Assembly (NCBI GenBank): GCA_965218975.1
Contig: OZ244717.1
Location: forward strand, 64,001 to 128,000
Length of the DNA: 64,000 nucleotides
Direction of reading: 5' to 3'
Source: Candidatus Oxydemutatoraceae bacterium
GTDB lineage: Bacteria; Pseudomonadota; Gammaproteobacteria; Poriferisulfidales; Oxydemutatoraceae
The notes beneath the pieces were generated by a model. That model ran no database searches. It was not told where the DNA came from and saw only the letters and a program-made list of their open reading frames with translations. A program made the position numbers and the translations under genes. How positions within the stretch are numbered: the first letter of the stretch is position 1; each line of letters begins with the position of its first letter. Below are positions 12,254-56,074 of this stretch, one piece after another.

Positions 12254-12439
12254 GTAAAGTACGAACCCGTCTGCAGAATTATGAAGTGAGTTATTGATTT
12301 TACTACGAACCTTCTGACTTATGCAGTATCTGTACGATGCCACCCTAAATGGGATTTTTGAAGGGCGCTTCGGGGGAAGCGTTCGGCAGTAACATTCGGA
12401 TCGGTGCTTTCTGTCCGTTGCCGGCATGAGGACGGTGCA

Positions 12440-12537
12440 GGGTGAGACGCGCCCGGAAAACCGATCGGTTTTCAGCGGCGAACGACCCGACAAGGATGTC
12501 GGGGCTGGCGTTCATTGACAGAACCAAGTCTCGTCAT
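12440..12537. repeat. 98-bp structured repeat, 1 unit
   Basis: GGGTGAGACGCGCCCGGAAAACCGATCGGTTTTC...CCCGACAAGGATGTCGGG...GTCTCGTCAT. Confidence 0.95.
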
Positions 12538-12791
12538 GGACGACAGACACTTTGCTGAGCATTCGCCAACAAACACAAAACGGTTTCATAACCGGTCATT
12601 GAATGCTTCCGTATCGGCGAATAGCAGGTCTTCTGCATGATCGATACAATCTTCTTGGACGGTGCGGTTGAAGCGCTCGATGTGCGCGTTCATTTTTGGA
12701 CACTTGGGATAGGTCAGCCACTGCTCAATCGCGGGTGATTCCCGGATGAGCCGGGCAAACTGTCCTTGAAACTCACTACCACCGTCTGTCA

Positions 12792-12987
12792 GGGTGAGAT
12801 GCGCCCGGAAAACCGATCGGTTTTCAGCGGCGAACGACCCGACAAGGATGTCGGGGCTGGCGCTCATTGACAGAACCAAGTCTCGTCATGGGTGAGACGC
12901 GCCCGGAAAACCGATTGGTTTTCAGCGGCGAACGACCCGACAAGGACGTCGGGGCTGGCGTTCATTGACAGAACCAAGTCTCGTCAT
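12792..12987. repeat. 98-bp structured repeat, 2 tandem units
   Basis: Units start at 12792 and 12890 (period 98). Confidence 0.95.
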
Positions 12988-13382
12988 GGACGACAGGCAC
13001 TTTGCTGAGCATTCACCAGCAAACACAAAATAGTTTCATCAGCTCAAAGACTTTACTGCTGCCGAAATTCTGCCAGGCGCAGGAATGCGGCTGCGTTGCG
13101 GCTGTTACAGCGGTTGGTTGCCACTGCTATTGCCATTCGGGTATAGACATCGATGGTCGTTAAGACGTAGCGGCGCACTCCGTGCTGATAACGCACAATC
13201 GTATCCAGGGCGATGCAATGCCCCGCCGGATACTGTGCTTTGAAGTGTTTCGGCTTGCGTGCCCTGCAACGGCGCTTAAACGGTCGTTTTGTTTATCCTT
13301 TGGCATTCAGCCGCTGCGGAATACAGCGCATTTTATCCGGCGCATCTGCGATCAGGCGCGCAATCGTGCGGACACTCAGGCA

Positions 13383-13480
13383 GGGTGAGACGCGCCCGGA
13401 AAACCAATTGGTTTTCAGCGGTGAACGACCCGACAAGGACGTCGGGGCTGGGGCTTGTTGACAGAACCCAGTCGCGTCAT
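13383..13480. repeat. 98-bp structured repeat, 1 unit (AATT variant)
   Basis: Palindrome GAAAACCAATTGGTTTTC. Confidence 0.95.
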
Positions 13481-13579
13481 AGATGACAGGCACTTTGCCG
13501 ACAATCCGGCAACAAACACAAAACGGTTTCATCAGCTCAAAGATTTTACTGCTGCCGAGATTCGGATAAGCCTGGCGCA

Positions 13580-13775
13580 GGGTGAGACGCGCCCGGAAAA
13601 CCGATCGGTTTTCAGCGGCGAACGACTCGACAAGGACGTCAGGGCTGGCGCTCATTGACAGAACCAAGTCTCGTCATGGGTGAGACGCGCCCGGAAAACC
13701 AATTGGTTTTCAGCGGCGAACGATCCGACAAGGATGTCGGGGCTGGCGCTCATTGACAGAACCAAGTCTCGTCAT
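13580..13775. repeat. 98-bp structured repeat, 2 tandem units
   Basis: Units start at 13580 and 13678. Confidence 0.95.
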
Positions 13776-14324
13776 GGACGACAGGCACTGCGCTGACAAT
13801 CCGCTGGCGCCTCTTACGCGGCGCTTTGCCGCGATCATGCAAGGCGCTGAGACCAGTGCGGCGATAACGCCGGCGCCAACGGTACAAAGTACTGCGACCG
13901 ATCTTGAATGCGTTCGGGAGTTACAACCCTCCCAAAATAATAGGGCATCATATTTCTGTTGAAGATTAGAGCGCTCATGAGCCTCTATTTTTGAAGCAAA
14001 ATTGGCTGTACGATGCCATCATAAATGGGATTTTTGAAGGGCTTCGAAGGAAGCGTTCGGCAGTAACATTCGGATCGGTGCTTTCTGCCCGTTGCCGGCT
14101 GAGTCAGGAACAACGACAACTACTTAGAGAGTATGCCGAGGAGCACGGCCTGCAATGCCCTGGTCGGCAGAGCGATCAGGGCAAATAATACGGATTGAGC
14201 GATTTATCCCTGGGTCACAGCGATACGGCAGAATAACGGCAGAGATAGTCATTAGCGGAGGCGACTACCCGCTTTCCAAAACTCGGAAAATCACCCCGGC
14301 GGATCCGCGCATGCTGAAGTTCAG

Positions 14325-15197
14325 TCAATCAAGTCTCGGCTGATCAAACTGAGTATGCGTTTTTTTATCTAAAAGATAAGGATGTGCTGAGCGCAAGGAT
14401 GAGGGGAGAAAGGCTCTTATGGCATAAGCAACCGGACGCGCCAACACATGGAGTAACGACGGTTGTCTTGCAAAGCTGGTAGTATAAACAGGACGCACCC
14501 ATGGTGTTCTTACGGCAAATAGATTGGGCGTGCTGCTATATAGTATCTCCGTATCTATCGTTCGTTGAACATCATACGGAACCAGCTCGGAACAGAAACG
14601 GCGCGCGCATGCCGGAGTGATGACGTACCCGAGCGCCGTATAGTTCAACTTGTTGGGTTCCCACTTCTGCAATACTTTTACGTACTGGTCTGAATATTTT
14701 TCGTACTGGCCAATTCCTCCGGGCCATAGATGTAGAAAATCCGCTGATTCCGGCCATCCAATTCCGTCAAATGGAATCGCAGGATTTATGATAGCGTCAT
14801 CTTCGACAATCATACAAAGATCATCAGCCGGCATTTTACGGCAGAGGTTCCAGATTTCTATTTGGGAAAATGCAGCTGCAATACTTCCTATTCTTCGCAC
14901 CGCAGCGTCCTTTTTTTTCCGCGTGAGCATCGGATCATACTTTTGAGCAAAGTCTTGTGCATATTTTTCCCAACCCAGCCGTAGTTTCAATTTAACCCAC
15001 CACCTGCGGTCATCTTTAATCAGGTGTTGATATTTTGATTCCTCCAGAACCAAATGGTTTTTATTAACCCCGTTATACGAAATAGGCGGCGGTTTGGTTT
15101 GCCAGTTCTGAAATTGCTGTTCAAAGAGCTTGCGCCGTTTCTTTCCGAGCACGGGCGGATTGATCACAAAAATCCGAGTGATGAGACGTTTTTGCAC
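14325..15197 (-). CDS. glycosyltransferase family 25-like protein
   Basis: IFVIN...RR..F..Q start, IVEDDA motif, GYVIT...ARR. Confidence 0.7.
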   Translation of the reverse strand: MQKRLITRIFVINPPVLGKKRRKLFEQQFQNWQTKPPPISYNGVNKNHLVLEESKYQHLIKDDRRWWVKLKLRLGWEKYAQDFAQKYDPMLTRKKKDAAVRRIGSIAAAFSQIEIWNLCRKMPADDLCMIVEDDAIINPAIPFDGIGWPESADFLHLWPGGIGQYEKYSDQYVKVLQKWEPNKLNYTALGYVITPACARRFCSELVPYDVQRTIDTEILYSSTPNLFAVRTPWVRPVYTTSFARQPSLLHVLARPVAYAIRAFLPSSLRSAHPYLLDKKTHTQFDQPRLD

Positions 15198-22432: not shown

Positions 22433-22522
22433 CGGAGAGGGCGGGATTCGAACCCGCGTGCCGACTTACATCGACCATCTGATTTCGAGTCAGCGCCGTT
22501 ATGACCGCTTCGGTACCTCTCC
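22433..22522 (-). tRNA. tRNA-Ser(CGA)
   Basis: GGAGAGG acceptor stem, CT-CGA-AA anticodon loop, long variable arm, GGTTCGAATCC. Followed by CCG rather than CCA. Confidence 0.95.
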
Positions 22523-23403: not shown

Positions 23404-23779
23404 ACCGTCCGTCCGATTCTTTATTAGATGCCCGGCATAACTTATCTCCTGTACAGTGCCAGATACATGTGGGATTCACGGCACGACTCAAAAAGGTAAC
23501 CGATATGCAATATCAGCACATCGGCCACCGCATCAAAGGTTTCTATATGAGCCAATTTTGCTTCAAAAATAGAGGCTCATAAACACAACGGCTCAACAGA
23601 AATATGATGCCCTATTATTTTGGGAGGGTTGTAACTCCCGAACGCATTCAAGATCAATCGCAGTACTTTGTACCGCTGGCGCCGGCGTTATCGCCGCATT
23701 GGCCTCAGCGCCTTACATGATTGCGGCAAAGCGCCGCGTAAGAGGCGCCAGCGGATTGTCAGCAAAGTGCTTGTCGTCC

Positions 23780-23877
23780 ATGACGAGACTTGGTTCTGTC
23801 AATGAACGCCAGCCCCGACGTCCTTGTCGAGTCGTTCGCCGCTGAAAACCGATCGGTTTTCCGGGCGCGTCTCACCC
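23780..23877. repeat. 98-bp structured repeat, 1 unit
   Basis: ATGACGAGACTTGG...GCGTCTCACCC. Confidence 0.95.
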
Positions 23878-24290
23878 TGCCCGAGTGTCTGCACGATTGC
23901 GCGCCTGATCGCAGATGCGCCGGATAAAATGCGCTGTATTCCGCAGCGGCTGAATGCCAAAGGACAAACAAAACGACCGTTTAAGCGCCGTTGCAGGGCA
24001 CGCAAGCCGAAACACTTCAAAGCACAGTATCCGGGGCATTGCATCGCCCTGGATACGATTGTGCGTGATCAGCACGGAGTACGCCGCTACGTCTTAACGG
24101 CCATCAATGCCTATACCCGAATGGCAATAGCAGTGGCAACCAACCGCTGTAACAGCCACAACGCAGCCGCATTCCTGCGCCTGGCAGAATTTCGGCAGCA
24201 GTAAAGTCTTTGAGCTGATGAAACCATTTTGTGTTTGCTGCCGGATTGTCGGCGGATTGTGCCGGATTGTCAGCGCAGTGCCTGTCGTCC

Positions 24291-24486
24291 ATGACGAGAC
24301 TTGGTTCTGTCAATGAGCGCCAGCCCCGACATCCTTGTCGGGTCGTTCGCCGCTGAAAACCAATTGGTTTTCCGGGCGCGTCTCACCCATGACGAGACTT
24401 GGTTCTGTCAATGAGCGCCAGCCCCGACGTCCTTGTCGGGTCGTTCGCCGCTGAAAACCGATCGGTTTTCCGGGCGCGTCTCACCC
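24291..24486. repeat. 98-bp structured repeat, 2 tandem units
   Basis: Units at 24291 (AATT) and 24389 (GATC). Confidence 0.95.
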
Positions 24487-24740
24487 TGACGGACGGCGGG
24501 AGTGAGTTTCAAGGACAGTTTGCCCGGCTCATCCGGGAATCACCCGTGATTGAGCAGTGGCTGACCTATCCCAAGTGTCCAAAAATGAACGCGCACATCG
24601 AGTGCTTCAACCGCACCGTCCAAGAAGATTGTATCGATCATGCAAAAGACCTGCTATTCGCCGATACGGAAGCATTCAATGACCGGTTATGAAACCGTTT
24701 TGTGTTTGTTGGCGGATTTTCGGCACAGTGCCTGTCATCC

Positions 24741-24936
24741 ATGACGAGACTTGGTTCTGTCAATGAGCGCCAGCCCCGACGTCCTTGTCGGGTCGTTCAC
24801 CGCTGAAAACCAATTGGTTTTCCGGGCGCGTCTCACCCATGACGAGACTTGGTTCTGTCAATGAGCGCCAGCCCCGACGTCCTTGTCGGGTCGTTCGCCA
24901 CTGAAAACCGATCGGTTTTCCGGGCACGTCTCACCC
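24741..24936. repeat. 98-bp structured repeat, 2 tandem units
   Basis: Units at 24741 and 24839. Confidence 0.95.
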
Positions 24937-25198
24937 TACACCGTCCTCATGCCGGCAACGGACAGAAAGCACCGGTCCGAATGTTACTGCCGAACGCTTC
25001 CTCCGAAGCCCTTCAAAAATCCCATTTAGGGTGGCATCGTACAATCTCTTTACGCTAGTTCTCTATAAATCATAATACGGCTTGCGGAAAATAATCCTCT
25101 ACACTTTACTCTTACTCATACTCAGTCACGGCACAATAGACAAGTAATATGCAGACTTGGAGGGAAACCTGTTGTCCGAACTGTGCCCTTTGATGAAA

Positions 25199-30523: not shown

Positions 30524-32188
30524 ATGCGGCGAAAAATTCCGACACCTCTGCAGATTGTCTGCTTAATCGTTTGGCTAATCACCTCGTGTAGTGAAAAACC
30601 GGTAGGCTATGCCATTGCGACCGCGCATCCGCTCGCAACACAGGCGGGTTCTGAAATACTTGCACAGAACGGTAACGCTTTTGATGCGGCAGTCACCATC
30701 AGTGCGGTATTAGCGGTTGTCGAGCCCTATTCATCCGGTTTCGGCGGAGGTGGCTTCTGGCTATTGCACCGCCGACAAGATAATCGGCAAATCATGCTCG
30801 ACGGGCGCGAACGCGCACCAAGCGGCGCGAATCGCAACATGTATTTAGACAAACAAGGAAATTTAATCGAAACCAAATCTTTGCTCGGCCCTCTCGCGGC
30901 GGGTATTCCTGGATTGCCTGCCGCACTGGTTCACCTTTCTAAAAATTACGGTATTTTACCTTTATCGGTTACATTAAAGCCTGCTATCCGATATGCGCGC
31001 GAAGGTTTCCCTGCCGATATAAAGTTAGTGGAAATGATTGAAAAACGCAAGGGAATTCTATCTCCTATGGCGAAAAAAATATTTCTGCCGAATAATAAAG
31101 TCCCTGACCTAGGCGACACGATTTACCAAACCGACCTTGCCGATACTATTGAGCAAATTGTTATACATGGCTTTGACGGGTTTTACCGCAGCAATGTTGC
31201 GAACAAACTAGTAACGGAATCAAGGTCCGCAGGCGGTATTTGGACATTGGCGGACCTCGCTACTTATACAGTGGTTGAGAGAGACCCCATCCGTTTCTCT
31301 TTTCAGGGAGCCTCTATCACCAGCGCGACATTACCGTCGTCCGGTGGTATCGTCTTGGCTGAAATTCTGAACCTGCTGACACAGCTCGGTGTCCACTCGC
31401 CACAAAACTCGGAAGATATTCATTACATCATTGAAGCAATGCGGCTGGCTTACCGTGATCGCGCCAAATGGTTAGGCGACGCCGACTTTGTCGAGGTGCC
31501 GCAAAAAAAACTTATTAGCCCCGCATACGCCAAACAACTCGCTCAACAAATCAGCGCCCGACATGCCGGCAAAAGCAATCGGTTATTTAACACACAACGA
31601 AACGAAGGTCGTGACACGACACATTTCTCAATTATTGACCGACATGGCAATCGTGTCGCCGCAACACTTTCAATCAATTATCCGTTTGGGTCCGGATTTA
31701 TCGCCAAAGGCTCCGGAATACTATTCAATAATGAAATGGATGATTTCTCGGCCAAGCCCGGCACACCGAATATTTACGGTCTCATCGGGGGGAAAGCGAA
31801 TGAAATCGCACCAAACAAGCGAATGCTATCAAGCATGTCGCCAACGTTTGTGGATGACGGCAAACGTGTTGCCATCATCGGAACACCCGGTGGAAGCCGC
31901 ATTATCACAATGAACCTGCTAGGAATTCTGCGCTTCCTAAAAGGAGAAAATGCGGCATCTATTGTTGCGGCAAAACGTTTCCACCATCAATATTTACCTA
32001 ACTTGGTTGAATATGAAACCGGGGCACTCAGTCAGCAGACATTATCCGAGCTTGTCGCAAAAGGACATCGCTTAAAGCGCCGCCAAACGGATTATGGCAA
32101 TATGCAGGTTGTGATCTGGGATTATTCCGGCAATCAACTCAATGCCGCTTCCGACCCGCGCGGTATCGGAACAGTCAACATTAAATAA
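30524..32188 (+). CDS. ggt: gamma-glutamyltransferase
   Basis: GNAFDAAV, TTHFSIID nucleophile, NNEMDDF, KRMLSSMSPT, GTPGGSRI. Confidence 0.95.
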   Translation: MRRKIPTPLQIVCLIVWLITSCSEKPVGYAIATAHPLATQAGSEILAQNGNAFDAAVTISAVLAVVEPYSSGFGGGGFWLLHRRQDNRQIMLDGRERAPSGANRNMYLDKQGNLIETKSLLGPLAAGIPGLPAALVHLSKNYGILPLSVTLKPAIRYAREGFPADIKLVEMIEKRKGILSPMAKKIFLPNNKVPDLGDTIYQTDLADTIEQIVIHGFDGFYRSNVANKLVTESRSAGGIWTLADLATYTVVERDPIRFSFQGASITSATLPSSGGIVLAEILNLLTQLGVHSPQNSEDIHYIIEAMRLAYRDRAKWLGDADFVEVPQKKLISPAYAKQLAQQISARHAGKSNRLFNTQRNEGRDTTHFSIIDRHGNRVAATLSINYPFGSGFIAKGSGILFNNEMDDFSAKPGTPNIYGLIGGKANEIAPNKRMLSSMSPTFVDDGKRVAIIGTPGGSRIITMNLLGILRFLKGENAASIVAAKRFHHQYLPNLVEYETGALSQQTLSELVAKGHRLKRRQTDYGNMQVVIWDYSGNQLNAASDPRGIGTVNIK

Positions 32189-37121: not shown

Positions 37122-37298
37122 ATTCCAAACTTATTTTGCCAGTTTCTAAAGGTGTATATTCTAGCAAAAAATCAATCCCGGTAATAGAGTGTGTACGATG
37201 CCACCCTAAATGGGATTCTTGGAGGGCTTCGGGGGAAGCGTTCGGCAGTAACATTCGGACCGGTGCTTTCTCCCCGTTGCCGACATGAGGGCGGTGCA

Positions 37299-37494
37299 GG
37301 GTGAGACGCGCCCGGAAAACCGATCGGTTTTCAGCGGCGAACGACCCGACAAGGACGTCGGGGCTGGCACTCATTGACAGAACCCAGTCTCGTCATGGGT
37401 GAGACGCGCCCGGAAAACCAATTGGTTTTCAGCGGTGAACGACCCGACAAGGACGTCGGGGCTGGAGCTTGTTGACAGAACCCAGTCGCGTCAT
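37299..37494. repeat. 98-bp structured repeat, 2 tandem units
   Basis: Units at 37299 and 37397. Confidence 0.95.
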
Positions 37495-37769
37495 GGATGA
37501 CAGGCACTTTGCCGACAATCCGGCACAATCCGCCGAAAATCCGACAACAAACACAAAACGGTTTCATAACCGGTCATTGAATGCTTCCGTATCGGCGAAT
37601 AGCAGGTCTTCTGCATGATCGATACAATCTTCTTGGACGGTGCGGTTGAAGCGCTTGATGTGCGCGTTCATTTTCGGACACTTGGGATAGGTCAGCCGTT
37701 GCTCGGTCGCAGGTGATTCCCGGATGAGCCGGGCAAACTGCCCTTGAAACTCACTGCCGCCGTCCGTCA

Positions 37770-37867
37770 GGGTGAGACGCGCTCGGAAAACCGATCGGTT
37801 TTCAGCGGCGAACGACCCGACAAGGACGTCGGGGCTGGTGCTCATTGACAGAACCAAGTCTCGTCAT
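37770..37867. repeat. 98-bp structured repeat, 1 unit
   Basis: Sits between the KVLV and LTDGG codons of the transposase. Confidence 0.95.
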
Positions 37868-38393
37868 GGACGACAAGCACTTTGCCAGGTTGCGGCAGTA
37901 CCGACACTATACACGCCAGGGTCAGGCGCAGGAATGCGGCAGCACTACGGCTGTTACAGCGGTTGGTTGCCGTTGCTGTTGCCATACGGGTATAGACATC
38001 AATAGCCTATATGTTGGATTTGCAAGGCTTCTCCTCCTGTCGGCAGGAGTGCCAAATGTTTCTGAGCTTATGCATGCGAGGCGCTAGTCCCAGTGCGGCG
38101 ATAATGCCGACGCCAACGGTACAAAGTGCTGCGACCGACCTTGAATGCGTTCGGGAGTTACAACCCTCCCAAAATGAGGGCATCATATTTCTGTTGAAGT
38201 TTAGAGCACTCATGAGCCTCCATCTTTGAGGTTAAACAGGCTCATATAGAAACCTTTGATGCGGTGGCCGATGTGCTGATATTACATATTGCATATCGGT
38301 CACCTTTTTATTGAAAAGTATTTTCCGGTATGTATCTGGACACGTACATCAAACCCTTATATGATTAATCTTATTCACTGGCTTGAAGCAATA

Positions 38394-45968: not shown

Positions 45969-46402
45969 TTATTGTCTCAGACACTTGGTACTCGAAAATA
46001 ATCTTTTCTGATCAAGATTAAAAGATTAAAAAAGGCTAATCTGCAAAAGCGCCGACCCTCCGCTCTGTATAATGCCAGATACATATGGGACTCACGGCTT
46101 AACTCGAAAAGATGACCGATATGCAATATCAGCACATCGGCCACCGCATCAAAGATTTCTATATGAGCCAATTTTGCTTTAAAAATAGAGGCTCATGAAC
46201 ACAACGGCTCAACAGAAACACGATGCCATGTTATTTTGGAGGATTGTAACCCTAAACGCATTCAAGGTCGGTCGCAGCACTTTGTCCCGTTGGCGTCGGC
46301 GTTATCGCCGCACTGGCCTCAGCGCCTTGCATGACCGCGGCAAAGCGCCGCGCAAGAGGCGTCGGCGGGTCTGGCTGCAACCCGGCAAAGTGCCTGTCGT
46401 CC

Positions 46403-46607
46403 ATGACGAGACTTGGTTCTGTCAATGAGCGCCAGCCCCGACGTCCTTGTCGGGTCGTTCGCCGCTGAAAACCGATCGGTTTTCCGGGCGCGTCTCACCC
46501 TGCTCGTCCATGACGAGACTTGGTTCTGTCAATGAACCCCAGCCCCGACATCCTTGTCGGGTCGTTCGCCGCTGAAAACCGATCGGTTTTCCGGGCGCGT
46601 CTCACCC
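46403..46607. repeat. 98-bp structured repeat, 2 units with 9-bp spacer TGCTCGTCC
   Basis: Units at 46403 and 46510. Confidence 0.95.
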
Positions 46608-46968
46608 TGCCCGAGTGTCCGCACGATTGCGCGCCTGATCGCGGATGCGCCGGATAAAATGCGCTGTATTCCGCAGCGGCTGAATGCCAAAGGACAAACA
46701 AAACGACCGTTTAAGCGCCGTTGCAGGGCACGCAAGCCGAAACACTTCAAAGCACAGTATCCGGGGCATTGCATCGCCCTGGATACGATTGTGCGTTATC
46801 AGCACGGAGTGCGCCGCACCATCTTAACGGCCATCAATGTCCATACCCGAATGGCAATAGCAGTGGCAACCAACCGCTGTAACAGCCGCAACGCAGCCGC
46901 ATTCCTGCGCCTGACCCTGGCGTGTATAGTGTCGGTACTGCCGCAACCTGGCAAAGTGCTTGTCGTCC

Positions 46969-47066
46969 ATGACGAGACTTGGTTCTGTCAATAAGCACCA
47001 GCCCCGACATCCTTGTCGGGTCGTTCGCCGCTGAAAACCGATCGGTTTTCCGAGCGCGTCTCACCC
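46969..47066. repeat. 98-bp structured repeat, 1 unit
   Basis: Sits between the KVLV and LTDGG codons. Confidence 0.95.
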
Positions 47067-47341
47067 TGACGGACGGCGGGAGTGAGTTTCAAGGACAGTT
47101 TGCCCGGCTCATCCGGGAATCACCCGTGATTGAGCAGTGGCTGACCTATCCCAAGTGTCCAAAAATGAACGCGCACATCAAGCGCTTCAACCGCACCGTC
47201 CAAGAAGATTGTATCGATCATGCAGAAGACCTGCTATTCGCCGATACGGAAGCATTGAATGACCGGTTATGAAACCGTTTTGTGTTTGTTGGTGGATTGT
47301 CGGCGGATTGTGCCGGATTGTCGGCAAAGTGCCTGTCGTCC

Positions 47342-47546
47342 ATGACGAGACTTGGTTCTGTCAATGAGCGCCAGCCCCGACGTCCTTGTCGGGTCGTTCG
47401 CCGCTGAAAACCGACCGGTTTTCCGGGCGCGTCTCACCCTGCTCGTCCATGACGAGACTTGGTTCTGTCAATGAGCGCCAGCCCCGACGTCCTTGTCGGG
47501 TCGTTCGCCGCTGAAAACCGATCGGTTTTCCGGGCGCGTCTCACCC
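47342..47546. repeat. 98-bp structured repeat, 2 units with 9-bp spacer
   Basis: Units at 47342 and 47449. Confidence 0.95.
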
Positions 47547-47755
47547 TGCACCGCCCTCATGCCGGCAGCGGACAGAAAGCACCGATCCGAATGTTACTGC
47601 CGAACGCTTCCCCAGAAGCTCTTCAAAAATCCCATTTAGGGTGGCATCGTACATTATATTGCTATTTTTTTTTTCTAATGTAGAATAAACCTCTTTGAAA
47701 GCAAAGACCTTTTGCACCGGTTTTCACAAAACAGAATACCCATGGCTCCATAAAA

Positions 47756-54176: not shown

Positions 54177-54253
54177 TGGCGCGCCTGGCAGGATTCGAAC
54201 CTGCGACCTTTGCCTTCGGAGGGCAACACTCTATCCGACTGAGCTACAGGCGC
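54177..54253 (-). tRNA. tRNA-Arg(CCG)
   Basis: GCGCCTGTAGCTCAG...CT-CCG-AA...GGTTCGAATCC...GCGCCA; 77 nt with encoded CCA. Confidence 0.97.
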
Positions 54254-54382: not shown

Positions 54383-54431
54383 TGCATAGTGCCGGATACA
54401 TACCGGACAAATACTTTTCAATAAAAAGGTG
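54383..54431 (+). mobile_element. orphan IS481 left end (copy-C type) abutting copy E
   Basis: TGCATAGTGCCGGATACATACCGGACAAATACTTTTCAATAAAAAGGTG matches the reverse complement of about 38301-38340. Confidence 0.75.
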
Positions 54432-54770
54432 TGTATAGTGCCAGATACATATGGGACTCACGGCTTAACTCGAAAAGGTGACCGATATGCAATATCAGCA
54501 CATCGGCCACCGCATCAAAGGTTTCTATATGAGCCAATTTTGCTTCAAAAATAGAGGCTCATGAACACAACGGCTCAACAGAAACACGATGCCCTGTTAT
54601 TTTGGGAGGATTGTAACTCCCGAACACATTCAAGCTCAGTCGTAGCACTTTGTATGCCTGGCGCAAGCGTTATCGCCGCACTGGGCTCAGCGCCTTGCAT
54701 GACCGCGGCAAAGCACCGCGCAAGAGGCGTCGGCGGATCTGGCCGCAACCTGGCAAAGTGCCTGTCATCC

Positions 54771-54975
54771 ATGACGAGACTTGGTTCTGTCAATGAGCGC
54801 CAGCCTCGACGTCCTTGTCGGGTCGCTTGCCGCTGAAAACCGATCGGTTTTCCGGGCGCATCTCACCCTGCTCGTCCGTGATGAGACTTGGTTCTGCGAA
54901 TGAACCCCAGCCCCGACATCCTTGTTGGGTCGTTCGCCGCTGAAAACCGATCGGTTTTCCGGGCGCATCTCACCC
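54771..54975. repeat. 98-bp structured repeat, 2 units with 9-bp spacer
   Basis: Units at 54771 and 54878. Confidence 0.93.
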
Positions 54976-55368
54976 TGCCCGAGTGTCCGCACGATTGCGG
55001 CCTGATCGCGGATGCGCCGGATAAAATGCGCTGTATTCTGCAGCATCTGAATGCCAAAGAACAAACAAAACGACTGTTCAAGCACCGTTGCAAGGCACGC
55101 AAGCCGAAACACTTCAAAGCACAGTATCCGGGGCATTGCATCGCCTTGGATACAATCGTGCGTTATCAGCACGGGGTGCGCCGCACCATATTAACGGCCA
55201 TTGATGTCTATACCCGTATGGCAACAGCAGCGGCAACCAACCGCTGTAACAGCCGTAGTACTGCCGCATTCCTGCACCTGGCAGAATTTCGGCAGCAGTA
55301 AAGTCTTTGAGCTGATGAAACCATTTTGTGTTTGCTGCCGAATTGTCGGCGGATTGTGCCTGTCATCC

Positions 55369-55662
55369 ATGACGCGACTGGGTTCTGTCAACAAGCGCCA
55401 GCCCCGACGTCCTTGTCGGGTCGTTCACCGCTGAAAACCAATTGGTTTTCCGGGCGCGTCTCACCCATGACGAGACTTGGTTCTGTCAACAAGCGCCAGC
55501 CTCGACGTCCTTGTCGGGTCGTTCACCGCTGAAAACCAATTGGTTTTCCGGGCGCGTCTCACCCATGACGAGACTTGGTTCTGTCAACAAGCGCCAGCCC
55601 CGACGTCCTTGTCGGGTCGTTCGCCGCTGAAAACCGATCGGTTTTCCGGGCGCGTCTCACCC
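55369..55662. repeat. 98-bp structured repeat, 3 tandem units
   Basis: Units at 55369, 55467 and 55565. Confidence 0.95.
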
Positions 55663-56074
55663 TGACGGACGGCGGTAGTGAGTTTCAAGGACAGTTTGCC
55701 CGGCTCATCCGGGAATCACCCGCGATTGAGCAGTGGCTGACCTATCCCAAGTGTCCAAAAATGAACGCGCACATTGAGCGCTTCAACCGCACCGTCCAAG
55801 AAGATTGTATCGATCATGCGGAAGATCTGCTATTCGCCGATACGGAAGCATTCAATGACCGGTTATGGGAGTATTTAGCCTGGTATAAGCTGCACCGTCC
55901 TCATGTCGGCAACGGACAGAAAGCACCGATCCGAATGTTATTGCCGAGCGCTTCCCTCGAAGCTCTTCAAAAATCCCATTTTTAGGGTAACATCGTACAC
56001 AAAATCCACTATCAGCGTATTTTCCCGGTATAATGGCGCTCTTAATTTTTTTGCTAGTAGTCCAAGGTAGCAAA

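Follow-up and report, generated by a model that had tools for sequence, protein, structure and literature searches.

The genome of a Candidatus Oxydemutatoraceae bacterium (GenBank assembly GCA_965218975.1) carries a 98-bp repeat, referred to here as the unit, that is real, full length, structured, lineage specific, and essentially confined to remnants of insertion sequences (ISs) of the IS481 type. The DNA on which the analysis is centered, hereafter the window, is a stretch of 64,000 nucleotides comprising bases 64,001 to 128,000 of contig OZ244717.1 (2.081 Mb, 47.7% G+C), and it holds 24 units distributed over five IS481-like mosaic elements (e1 to e5). The units are no better preserved than the transposase sequence around them. 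At odds slightly better than even (a probability of about 0.55), we read the unit as a passenger repeat that was amplified by hitch-hiking on the IS, by tandem duplication, and by template switching or ectopic conversion.

Copy number and placement of the unit

The unit at window positions 13580 to 13677 served as the reference and as the blastn query against the whole genome; genome-wide counts also drew on pattern searches, a covariance model, and reading of the sequence by eye. An earlier note on this DNA had counted 24 units in five elements (6, 5, 3, 5, and 5 in e1 to e5) with none elsewhere in the window, and blastn returned the same numbers, with no match in the window outside the five elements. 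In the window, 23 of the units are 98 nt long and one is 97 nt, and the mean column identity over the 98 alignment columns is 97%. Tandem Repeats Finder picked out nine places in the window, which include all five elements, with periods of 98 and 107 bp. Across the genome there are 319 matches of at least 40 nt, of which 303 are near full length; a covariance model based on the 24 units of the window gave 306 matches in the first 2.0 Mb. The 319 matches form 193 runs, with 109 single units, 58 doubles, 19 triples, two runs each of four, five, and six units, and one run of seven; one of the long arrays lies at genome positions 241,509 to 242,191. Within a run, successive units follow each other directly (0 bp) or after the 9-bp spacer GGACGAGCA, and less often with 12 bp between them; the resulting head-to-tail arrays, with periods of 98, 107, and 110 bp (the last outside the window) and up to seven units, are tandem repeats of a minisatellite-like kind. 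Genome-wide word and pattern counts were about 85 to 90 for the IS end, about 317 for the unit, and 25 to 55 for the transposase pieces. The unit thus fills about 1.5% of a 2-Mb genome and is almost never found outside one IS family.

The context of a run, meaning the sequence just upstream of it, was classified by eye in 157 of the 193 runs. IS481 DNA adjoins 141 of these, another 14 lie within larger arrays and come after a tail or an incomplete unit, and 2 adjoin ordinary DNA. The 141 IS481 contexts fall into the classes A (43), A' (12), B (25), C (19, plus 2 C-like contexts in other lineages), D (18), D2 (5), E (4), and F (3), together with the outer IS end (6), the C terminus of the E lineage (2), and other positions inside transposase loci (2). 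Counted as inside versus outside IS481-derived DNA or arrays, as the earlier note had suggested, the contexts divide 155 to 2; its statement that no unit lies outside IS481 is accurate for the window and holds nearly, but not strictly, for the genome. The single orientation that it had reported likewise applies to all 24 window units, which are antisense to the transposase, and to every readable unit elsewhere except three F-class runs, which have the same sense as the transposase.

Searches of related genomes, which had also been suggested, found no copy of the unit in 40 relatives by BLAST or in 52 genomes of the order by the covariance model. A 28-nt core pattern had no match in two large public collections (genome contigs and metagenome contigs), and the unit had none in plasmid and phage collections at E values up to 0.01. 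One public run from another study contained contigs 90 to 95% like the unit, the tail that follows it (see below), and the IS pieces, with none of the unique flanks, which suggests a related organism with the same repeat family. As to the relationships of the bacterium itself, the closest named relatives of its HemL were uncultured Coxiellaceae metagenome-assembled genomes (MAGs) and one Thioploca MAG, at 56 to 60% identity.

The insert and its IS481 host

The host element has the ends and the transposase of an IS481 element. The IS end on the transposase C-terminal side, TGTACGATGCC..., matched the window five times compared with 0 expected in shuffles, and the corresponding end of e5, too mismatched for the pattern, was read directly. 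The opposite ends read ...GGCACTGTACA at 23450, ...GGCATTATACA at 46066, ...CACTATACA at 54432, and ...ACACGTACA at 38348. The two ends form short terminal inverted repeats (TIRs) that start with TG and end with CA, as expected of IS481 (TGTACGATGCC... and ...GGCACTGTACA; TGTAC...GTACA). All five elements had been credited with TGT...ACA ends; both ends were read in e2 to e5, whereas e1 has one type of end only. The colinear transposase fragments, which had been taken to fit IS481, carry the motifs HCIALDTIV, LTDGGSEF, and NAHIERFNRT of a DDE (rve) transposase, and the IS481 model NF033577 was the best NCBIfam model for the products P0003, P0004, and P0002, bearing out that assignment. Their scores (77, 58, and 30 bits) lie below the cutoff of 224 because they are fragments only; a full-length relative from outside the genome, P0020, also had IS481 as its best model, at 170 bits. 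The rve profile (PF00665) had eight matches in the genome, all within open frames of at most 246 amino acids (aa), and this search found no full-length transposase frame. A tblastn search with an outside IS481-type transposase revealed 70 remnant loci.

The minimal insert is 117 bp long and consists of the 98-bp unit followed by the 19 bp GGACGACAGGCACTTTGCC. Deleting these 117 bp at one position in the transposase gene, site C, restores the reading frame ...KPFCVCCRIV-CPSVRTIARLI... with the spacing seen in intact relatives such as P0018 (KPWCEARGIACPSVSTIGRII; KPWCEARGIACPSVST). Read in the transposase sense, the consensus of the 24 units contains a stop in each of the three frames. The sequence at site C is ...CTCGGGCA-insert-GACAATCC..., with no target bases duplicated, and of the two ends of the insert, GGGTGAGACG... 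and ...CACTTTGCC, neither is the inverted copy of the other; the target duplication and TIRs of a MITE (a miniature transposable element with inverted repeats) are therefore both missing. An ungapped repeat search found no inverted repeat between the IS end and the unit. A derivation of the unit from the IS end was also considered, given a gapped likeness seen by eye (unit nt 16 to 56 versus the reversed IS end), and was dropped, the only match being a direct one of 15 nt at 80%.

Three further sites, A, B, and D, are occupied in the window elements. The genome has no empty copy of site C at up to three mismatches; site A is empty in four copies, e5 among them, and site B in four. Comparison of filled with empty copies shows that 26 native bp are replaced at site A, with GCAG shared on one side and CAT on the other, and that 14 native bp are replaced at site B, with CAG shared on one side and TTTNCC on the other. 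Junctions outside the probable founding site C are exact at the unit start, show 1 to 6 nt of microhomology, replace 14 to 26 target bases, and carry the flank of site C along. This flank is the tail that follows nearly every run: native transposase DNA adjoining site C, coding for ELMKPFCVCCRIV, which extends for 19 bp, 29 bp, or about 52 to 90 bp or continues into the D segment, and which holds an 11-bp microrepeat in varying number. One tail variant, GGATGACAGGCACTTTGCCGACAATCCGGCACAATCCGCCGA.., was found after left contexts of the classes A, A', B, C, D, D2, and F, a pattern that points to whole blocks having moved from site to site. CA closes the majority of left flanks. In the 20-kb genome loci, the exact junction words (the slash marks the unit start) numbered 42 for GTGCA/GGGTGAG, 28 for GTCA/GGGTGAG (3 of those within one array), 14 for GGGCA/GGGTGAG, and 36 for GCGCA/GGGTGAG, in agreement with the classification by eye.

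The unit and the main-lineage tail are also present in two further IS481 lineages, E and F, at nonhomologous positions. The transposases of these lineages are 43% (E) and 37% (F) identical to the main type, and their units are 88 to 97% (E) and 91 to 95% (F) identical to the reference; the units must therefore have arrived after the lineages diverged. In the F lineage, three units and the tail lie at genome positions of about 325,320 to 326,830 in the same sense as the transposase, and the same context recurs at 1,216,603 and 1,751,429. The word CCAARTGTTTCTGAGCTTAT, present at 18 places genome-wide, marks the N-terminal piece of the E-type lineage, and this piece is spliced into main-type copies such as e3 (window 37990 to 38075), which means that the lineages form chimeras. 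The 170 bp adjoining the N-terminal end are common to all lineages. Two modules have their unit-start side against ordinary DNA, at genome positions 365,834 to 366,197 (run at 365,977) and 393,302 to 393,465. Both keep the transposase-derived tail, which indicates descent from IS-borne copies; a small host gene lies between the first of them and the nearest IS end. Finally, on the minus strand at about 1,034,800 to 1,035,720, a 303-bp segment is tandemly triplicated. It consists of the first 79 nt of the unit and 224 bp of AT-rich host DNA that includes the first 12 codons of a host gene. The junction reads ...CGCGCA/GGGTGAG where the host reads GGGACG, with GCAGGG microhomology and a 40-bp IS-end fragment adjoining. 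This is a plain microhomology duplication, which starts again at the first base of the unit.

Among the window elements, e1 (12331 to 14006) is an IS481-like mosaic with the transposase sense on the minus strand and with its N-terminal side truncated. Its parts follow in the order C-terminal end, site A unit, C-terminal piece, site B units, middle piece, site C unit, D segment, site D units, and N-terminal piece. A second IS end of 93 bp, in direct orientation (14007 to 14099, plus strand), cuts e1 at 14006, and the other, N-terminal-side IS end is absent. The units of e1 are on the plus strand. The site A unit (12440 to 12537) is preceded by ...GGACGGTGCA and followed by a 52-bp tail, GGACGACAG...GGTTTCAT; site B (12792 to 12987) holds two units without a spacer, adjoining the LTDGGSEF codons; the site C unit (13383 to 13480) lies at the founding site, between the codons for ...CRIV and CPSVRT...; and site D (13580 to 13775) holds two units adjoining the LRQAYPNLG codons. 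Element e2 (23450 to 25043, plus strand) has both IS ends and, on the minus strand, units at 23780 to 23877 (site C), 24291 to 24486 (site B, two units), and 24741 to 24936 (site A, two units). Element e3 (37192 to 38348, minus strand) has lost its middle and carries plus-strand units at 37299 to 37494 (site A, two units) and 37770 to 37867 (site B, in the precise 117-bp form), in addition to the E-type piece mentioned above. Element e4 (46066 to 47653, plus strand) is an IS481-like mosaic with minus-strand units at 46403 to 46607 (site C, two units with the 9-bp spacer), 46969 to 47066 (site B, precise 117-bp form), and 47342 to 47546 (site A, two units with a spacer). The e5 mosaic (54432 to 55999, plus strand) has minus-strand units at 54771 to 54975 (site C, two units with a spacer) and 55369 to 55662 (site B, three units), and its empty site A retains the native 26 bp at 55865 to 55890.

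Some neighboring features were recorded as well. Element e1 ends about 74 bp upstream of where nqrA probably starts (12257, minus strand), and the IS at this position may influence expression of the nqr operon. The sole promoter-like site in the scan (12250 to 12221, minus strand) is just inside the nqrA start and not between the start and the IS end. Two tRNA genes lie on the minus strand at 22433 to 22522 and 54180 to 54253; the latter is about 180 bp from the end of e5, and a further 50-bp IS-end fragment is found at 54386 to 54431. Tandem repeats of 21 bp (14666 to 14709) and 27 bp (31106 to 31157), with about two copies each, are unrelated to the unit.

Origin and spread of the unit

The earlier note had reasoned that ordinary decay of the IS should not spare one subsequence. 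Between sites A and B, the five elements share a 202-bp piece of the transposase at 98% identity, with no insertions or deletions (indels), and the IS ends of the window elements are similarly alike apart from small indels. With the transposase piece at 98% and the units at 97%, the premise that one part was spared fails: the units enjoy no special preservation, and no function need be ascribed to them. That units and transposase pieces are conserved to the same degree indicates that the elements are young copies of an already rearranged, nonautonomous master rather than decayed ISs, and the frameshifts and deletions are shared junctions inherited from this master copy, not the result of independent decay. 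The idea that the dead IS acts as a vehicle holds, as the repeat is carried by, and nearly confined to, IS481-type remnants.

The copy numbers, junction sequences, empty sites, and equal conservation are direct observations, on which the passenger account builds. The block-wise transfer of one tail variant and the triplicated segment outside the IS, where slippage again begins at the unit start, also speak for it, as do the absence of Y1, RVT_1, and IS110 matches and the lack of any sign of an RNA family or of selection on structure. The unit would be the repeating core of a small noncoding, hairpin-forming insert whose minimal form is 117 bp. A single founding insertion of these 117 bp at site C of an IS481 transposase gene would have killed the gene, because the insert carries stops in all three sense frames, while the broken element kept its ends and could have multiplied as a nonautonomous copy. 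The transposase was presumably supplied in trans by an intact relative that has since been lost, and with the unit aboard, the multiplying element would have made most unit copies hitch-hikers. Tandem duplication within and between IS copies may then have produced the arrays with periods of 98, 107, and 110 bp. Nonhomologous copying that starts at the exact first base of the unit could have arisen by template switching at hairpins, and units may in addition have been exchanged by ectopic gene conversion. By this route, units accompanied by a variable length of site C flank would have reached further places in the same element, as well as two more IS481 lineages.

A number of observations weigh against this account. 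At least 15 distinct left contexts meet the unit precisely at its first base, and about 8 of the 319 matches are truncated at the 5' side compared with about 14 at the 3' side. Random illegitimate recombination would cut within units more often, so the unit start resembles a defined, active end. Occurrence in three IS481 lineages with 37 to 43% protein identity and in only two non-IS contexts looks like a preference for IS481 DNA. The genome has no intact transposase that could supply transposition in trans, and the short target-site duplications of IS481, sought by eye, gave no consistent picture, with GAGAT on both sides of e2 and none seen at e3, e4, or e5. The classification of contexts by eye covers 157 of the 193 runs, with three places among the remaining 36 inspected, and a single assembly underlies the order and number of units within the arrays, which short contigs cannot bridge. 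The passenger account thus does not fully explain why so many junctions fall at the first base of the unit or why the new positions are nearly all of the IS481 type.

The exact unit start and the apparent preference for IS481 DNA would fit a module that is instead an active nonautonomous mobile element inserting preferentially into IS481-family transposase genes, a parasite of a parasite, which we rate as distinctly less probable than passenger amplification. Such an element would have an exact end at the unit start and a leaky other end, as in one-ended, rolling-circle, or single-strand (HUH-type) transposition, or it might use IS481 transposition intermediates. The exact left end, the CA that closes most left flanks, the two insertions in ordinary DNA, and the occupation of three IS481 lineages at nonhomologous sites and in both orientations all agree with it. 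So does the structure of the 117-bp form, which resembles that of IS200/IS605-type elements in having hairpins near both ends (unit nt 11 to 41, and across the border of unit and tail, TCGTCATGGACGA), no TIRs, and no target duplication at the clean site C. However, candidate enzymes of three kinds are missing. Y1_Tnp (PF01797) had no match in the genome, which is 99.4% complete, whereas 6 of 14 control genomes were positive, and the searches for RVT_1 and IS110 found no match in the genome; the Y2/IS91 profile search carries no weight, as 0 control genomes were positive. The tyrosine recombinase profile Phage_integrase had six matches, four of them in intact frames of 261 to 316 aa. Moreover, only site C is clean; the other sites replace 14 to 26 bases and carry the site C flank, which is unlike the action of a transposase, and their junctions show microhomology. 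The transposase-derived tail of the free-standing copies speaks for IS-borne descent, and the period-98 arrays, in which the 19-bp right part is missing, speak for duplication rather than insertion. The earlier suggestion of an IS-targeting parasite gains from the presence of the unit in two other IS481 lineages but ranks below the passenger reading. More speculative, and unlikely in our judgment, though an attractive version of an IS481-directed mechanism, is the proposal of a novel hyperparasite for which IS481-family DNA would be the sole route of spread: the module would be copied during replicative copy-out, its hairpins would stall synthesis, and the nascent strand would switch to another IS template. 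Copy-out template switching would account for the exact unit start, the microhomology, the replaced bases, and the co-copied flank, as well as for the near-absence of the unit outside IS481 and its arrival in three lineages. If this were true, each copy would break a transposase gene, and the module would amount to a self-spreading brake on the IS family.

It is still less probable that the unit is a selected module that silences IS481, either as a structured antisense RNA or through binding of a host protein to the perfect 18-bp palindrome GAAAACCGATCGGTTTTC. The proportion of near-full-length matches (303 of 319) and the antisense orientation in all but the F lineage could be read in this way, and the unit with its tail folds better than shuffles on the unit strand (z = -3.4); however, the unit alone does not (z = -0.8 and -1.4), and the flanking transposase pieces are equally conserved. 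Across 26 tested base pairs, 98% of the cells are paired, and one pair changes on both sides. This pair is the center of the palindrome, where unit positions 22 to 29 read CCGATCGG or CCAATTGG with few intermediates; among 113 distinct rows, which are related by descent, it is GC in 86, AU in 20, GU in 6, and another combination in 1. One-sided changes in helix 1 keep a G-U pair in 30 cases and leave the position unpaired in 5, again in rows related by descent, and the pair counts are thus not independent. Both changes in the palindrome are CpG transitions, which can recur without selection, and the symmetry could reflect cytosine methylation of the palindrome site rather than selection. At the gathering score, Rfam matched only two tRNAs in the window, and a search of 12300 to 14120, which includes e1, gave no match at E values up to 1. 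No promoter- or terminator-like consensus was found inside the units. The unit is absent from the 52 relatives, which do carry intact IS481-type genes (350 to 390 aa and 41 to 54% identity, in 10 of the 52). The analysis thus gave no sign of the selected RNA that the earlier note had put forward as one option. Least credible of all is that the mosaics are assembly artifacts of a repeat-rich genome. The arrays are indeed long, near-identical repeats, and no contig among those listed spans a whole element. Nevertheless, the unit, the tail, and the junctions are present in contigs of four public runs from three studies; in two runs both unique flanks are joined to IS ends with 0 differences, and an 11,692-bp contig reaches from a unique flank 28 bp into an IS end, also with 0 differences. 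In two runs the summed depth of the unit bin is about 300 times that of the flank (58,711 versus 180 and 8,210 versus 27), which fits about 319 copies, with the reservation that summed contig depth is not strictly copy number. Moreover, identical junctions are seen again and again, at dozens of loci whose sequences have diverged.

Comparison with known systems

Full-text literature searches, which were limited in reach, returned no description of a repeat confined to IS481 transposase genes. [quoted passage not shown] With a CRISPR array it shares direct repeats of one sequence that alternate with other DNA, and the earlier note had accordingly spoken of a repeat-spacer-like locus. This likeness is superficial. 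CRISPR repeats measure 23 to 55 bp and are separated by unique spacers, whereas the repeat here is 98 bp long and often directly tandem (no cas search was made), and every locus has for "spacers" the same four or five pieces of the transposase, in gene order. The loci are bounded by IS ends, and there are about 100 of them rather than one or a few.

IS200/IS605-type palindrome elements, REPs, and bacterial interspersed mosaic elements lack TIRs and target duplications, have hairpins near their ends, and insert in one orientation beside a short target word. IS200/IS605-type elements and REPs depend on a Y1 (HUH) transposase or a RAYT, and REPs are 20 to 40 bp long and extragenic. The present genome, as noted above, has no Y1 match. 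IS110-type elements are described as inserting into REPs (PMC12288879), which is the reverse of the relation here, where the repeat lies inside the IS.

The nearest precedents are the Repeat Unit of Pneumococcus (RUP), the BOX elements of streptococci, and a MITE of Cardinium. Small structured repeats make up a large and poorly understood part of host-restricted bacterial genomes, and the present family is an unusually clean case in which to ask how repeats that lack their own enzyme can spread. Gene callers and assemblers will be misled by its mosaics; with the catalogue of junctions, the mosaics can be annotated as a single family of elements. In Oedothorax gibbosus, the Cardinium symbiont is likewise a repeat-rich, host-restricted bacterium with a new, small, lineage-specific element: a MITE reportedly spread in that strain only and helped to pseudogenize other mobile elements (PMC9769881). 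That MITE is described as derived from a parental IS982 and as probably moved by intact parents (PMC9769881), whereas the unit is unlike the IS481 ends and has no intact parent. BOX elements (boxA-boxB(n)-boxC) are modular, an inner module whose tandem number varies being enclosed by other modules (PMC3049150), and the build of unit(n) plus tail is similar. However, BOX elements are scattered through intergenic DNA and have inverted ends, while the present module is lodged within IS481 genes and has taken its tail from transposase DNA. RUP, at 107 bp, is also a small structured noncoding repeat of about 100 bp at high copy number; the same paper describes it as mostly intergenic, with TIRs like those of IS630-Spn1 (PMC3049150). 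It was once proposed to prefer IS elements and thereby to limit functional transposases, which was later not confirmed (PMC3049150). In contrast, the unit has a near-total IS association (155 of 157 readable contexts), no TIRs, tandem arrays, and a co-copied transposase flank. It therefore bears on whether nesting in transposase genes helps to shut down an IS family, the idea that was proposed for RUP and then dropped.

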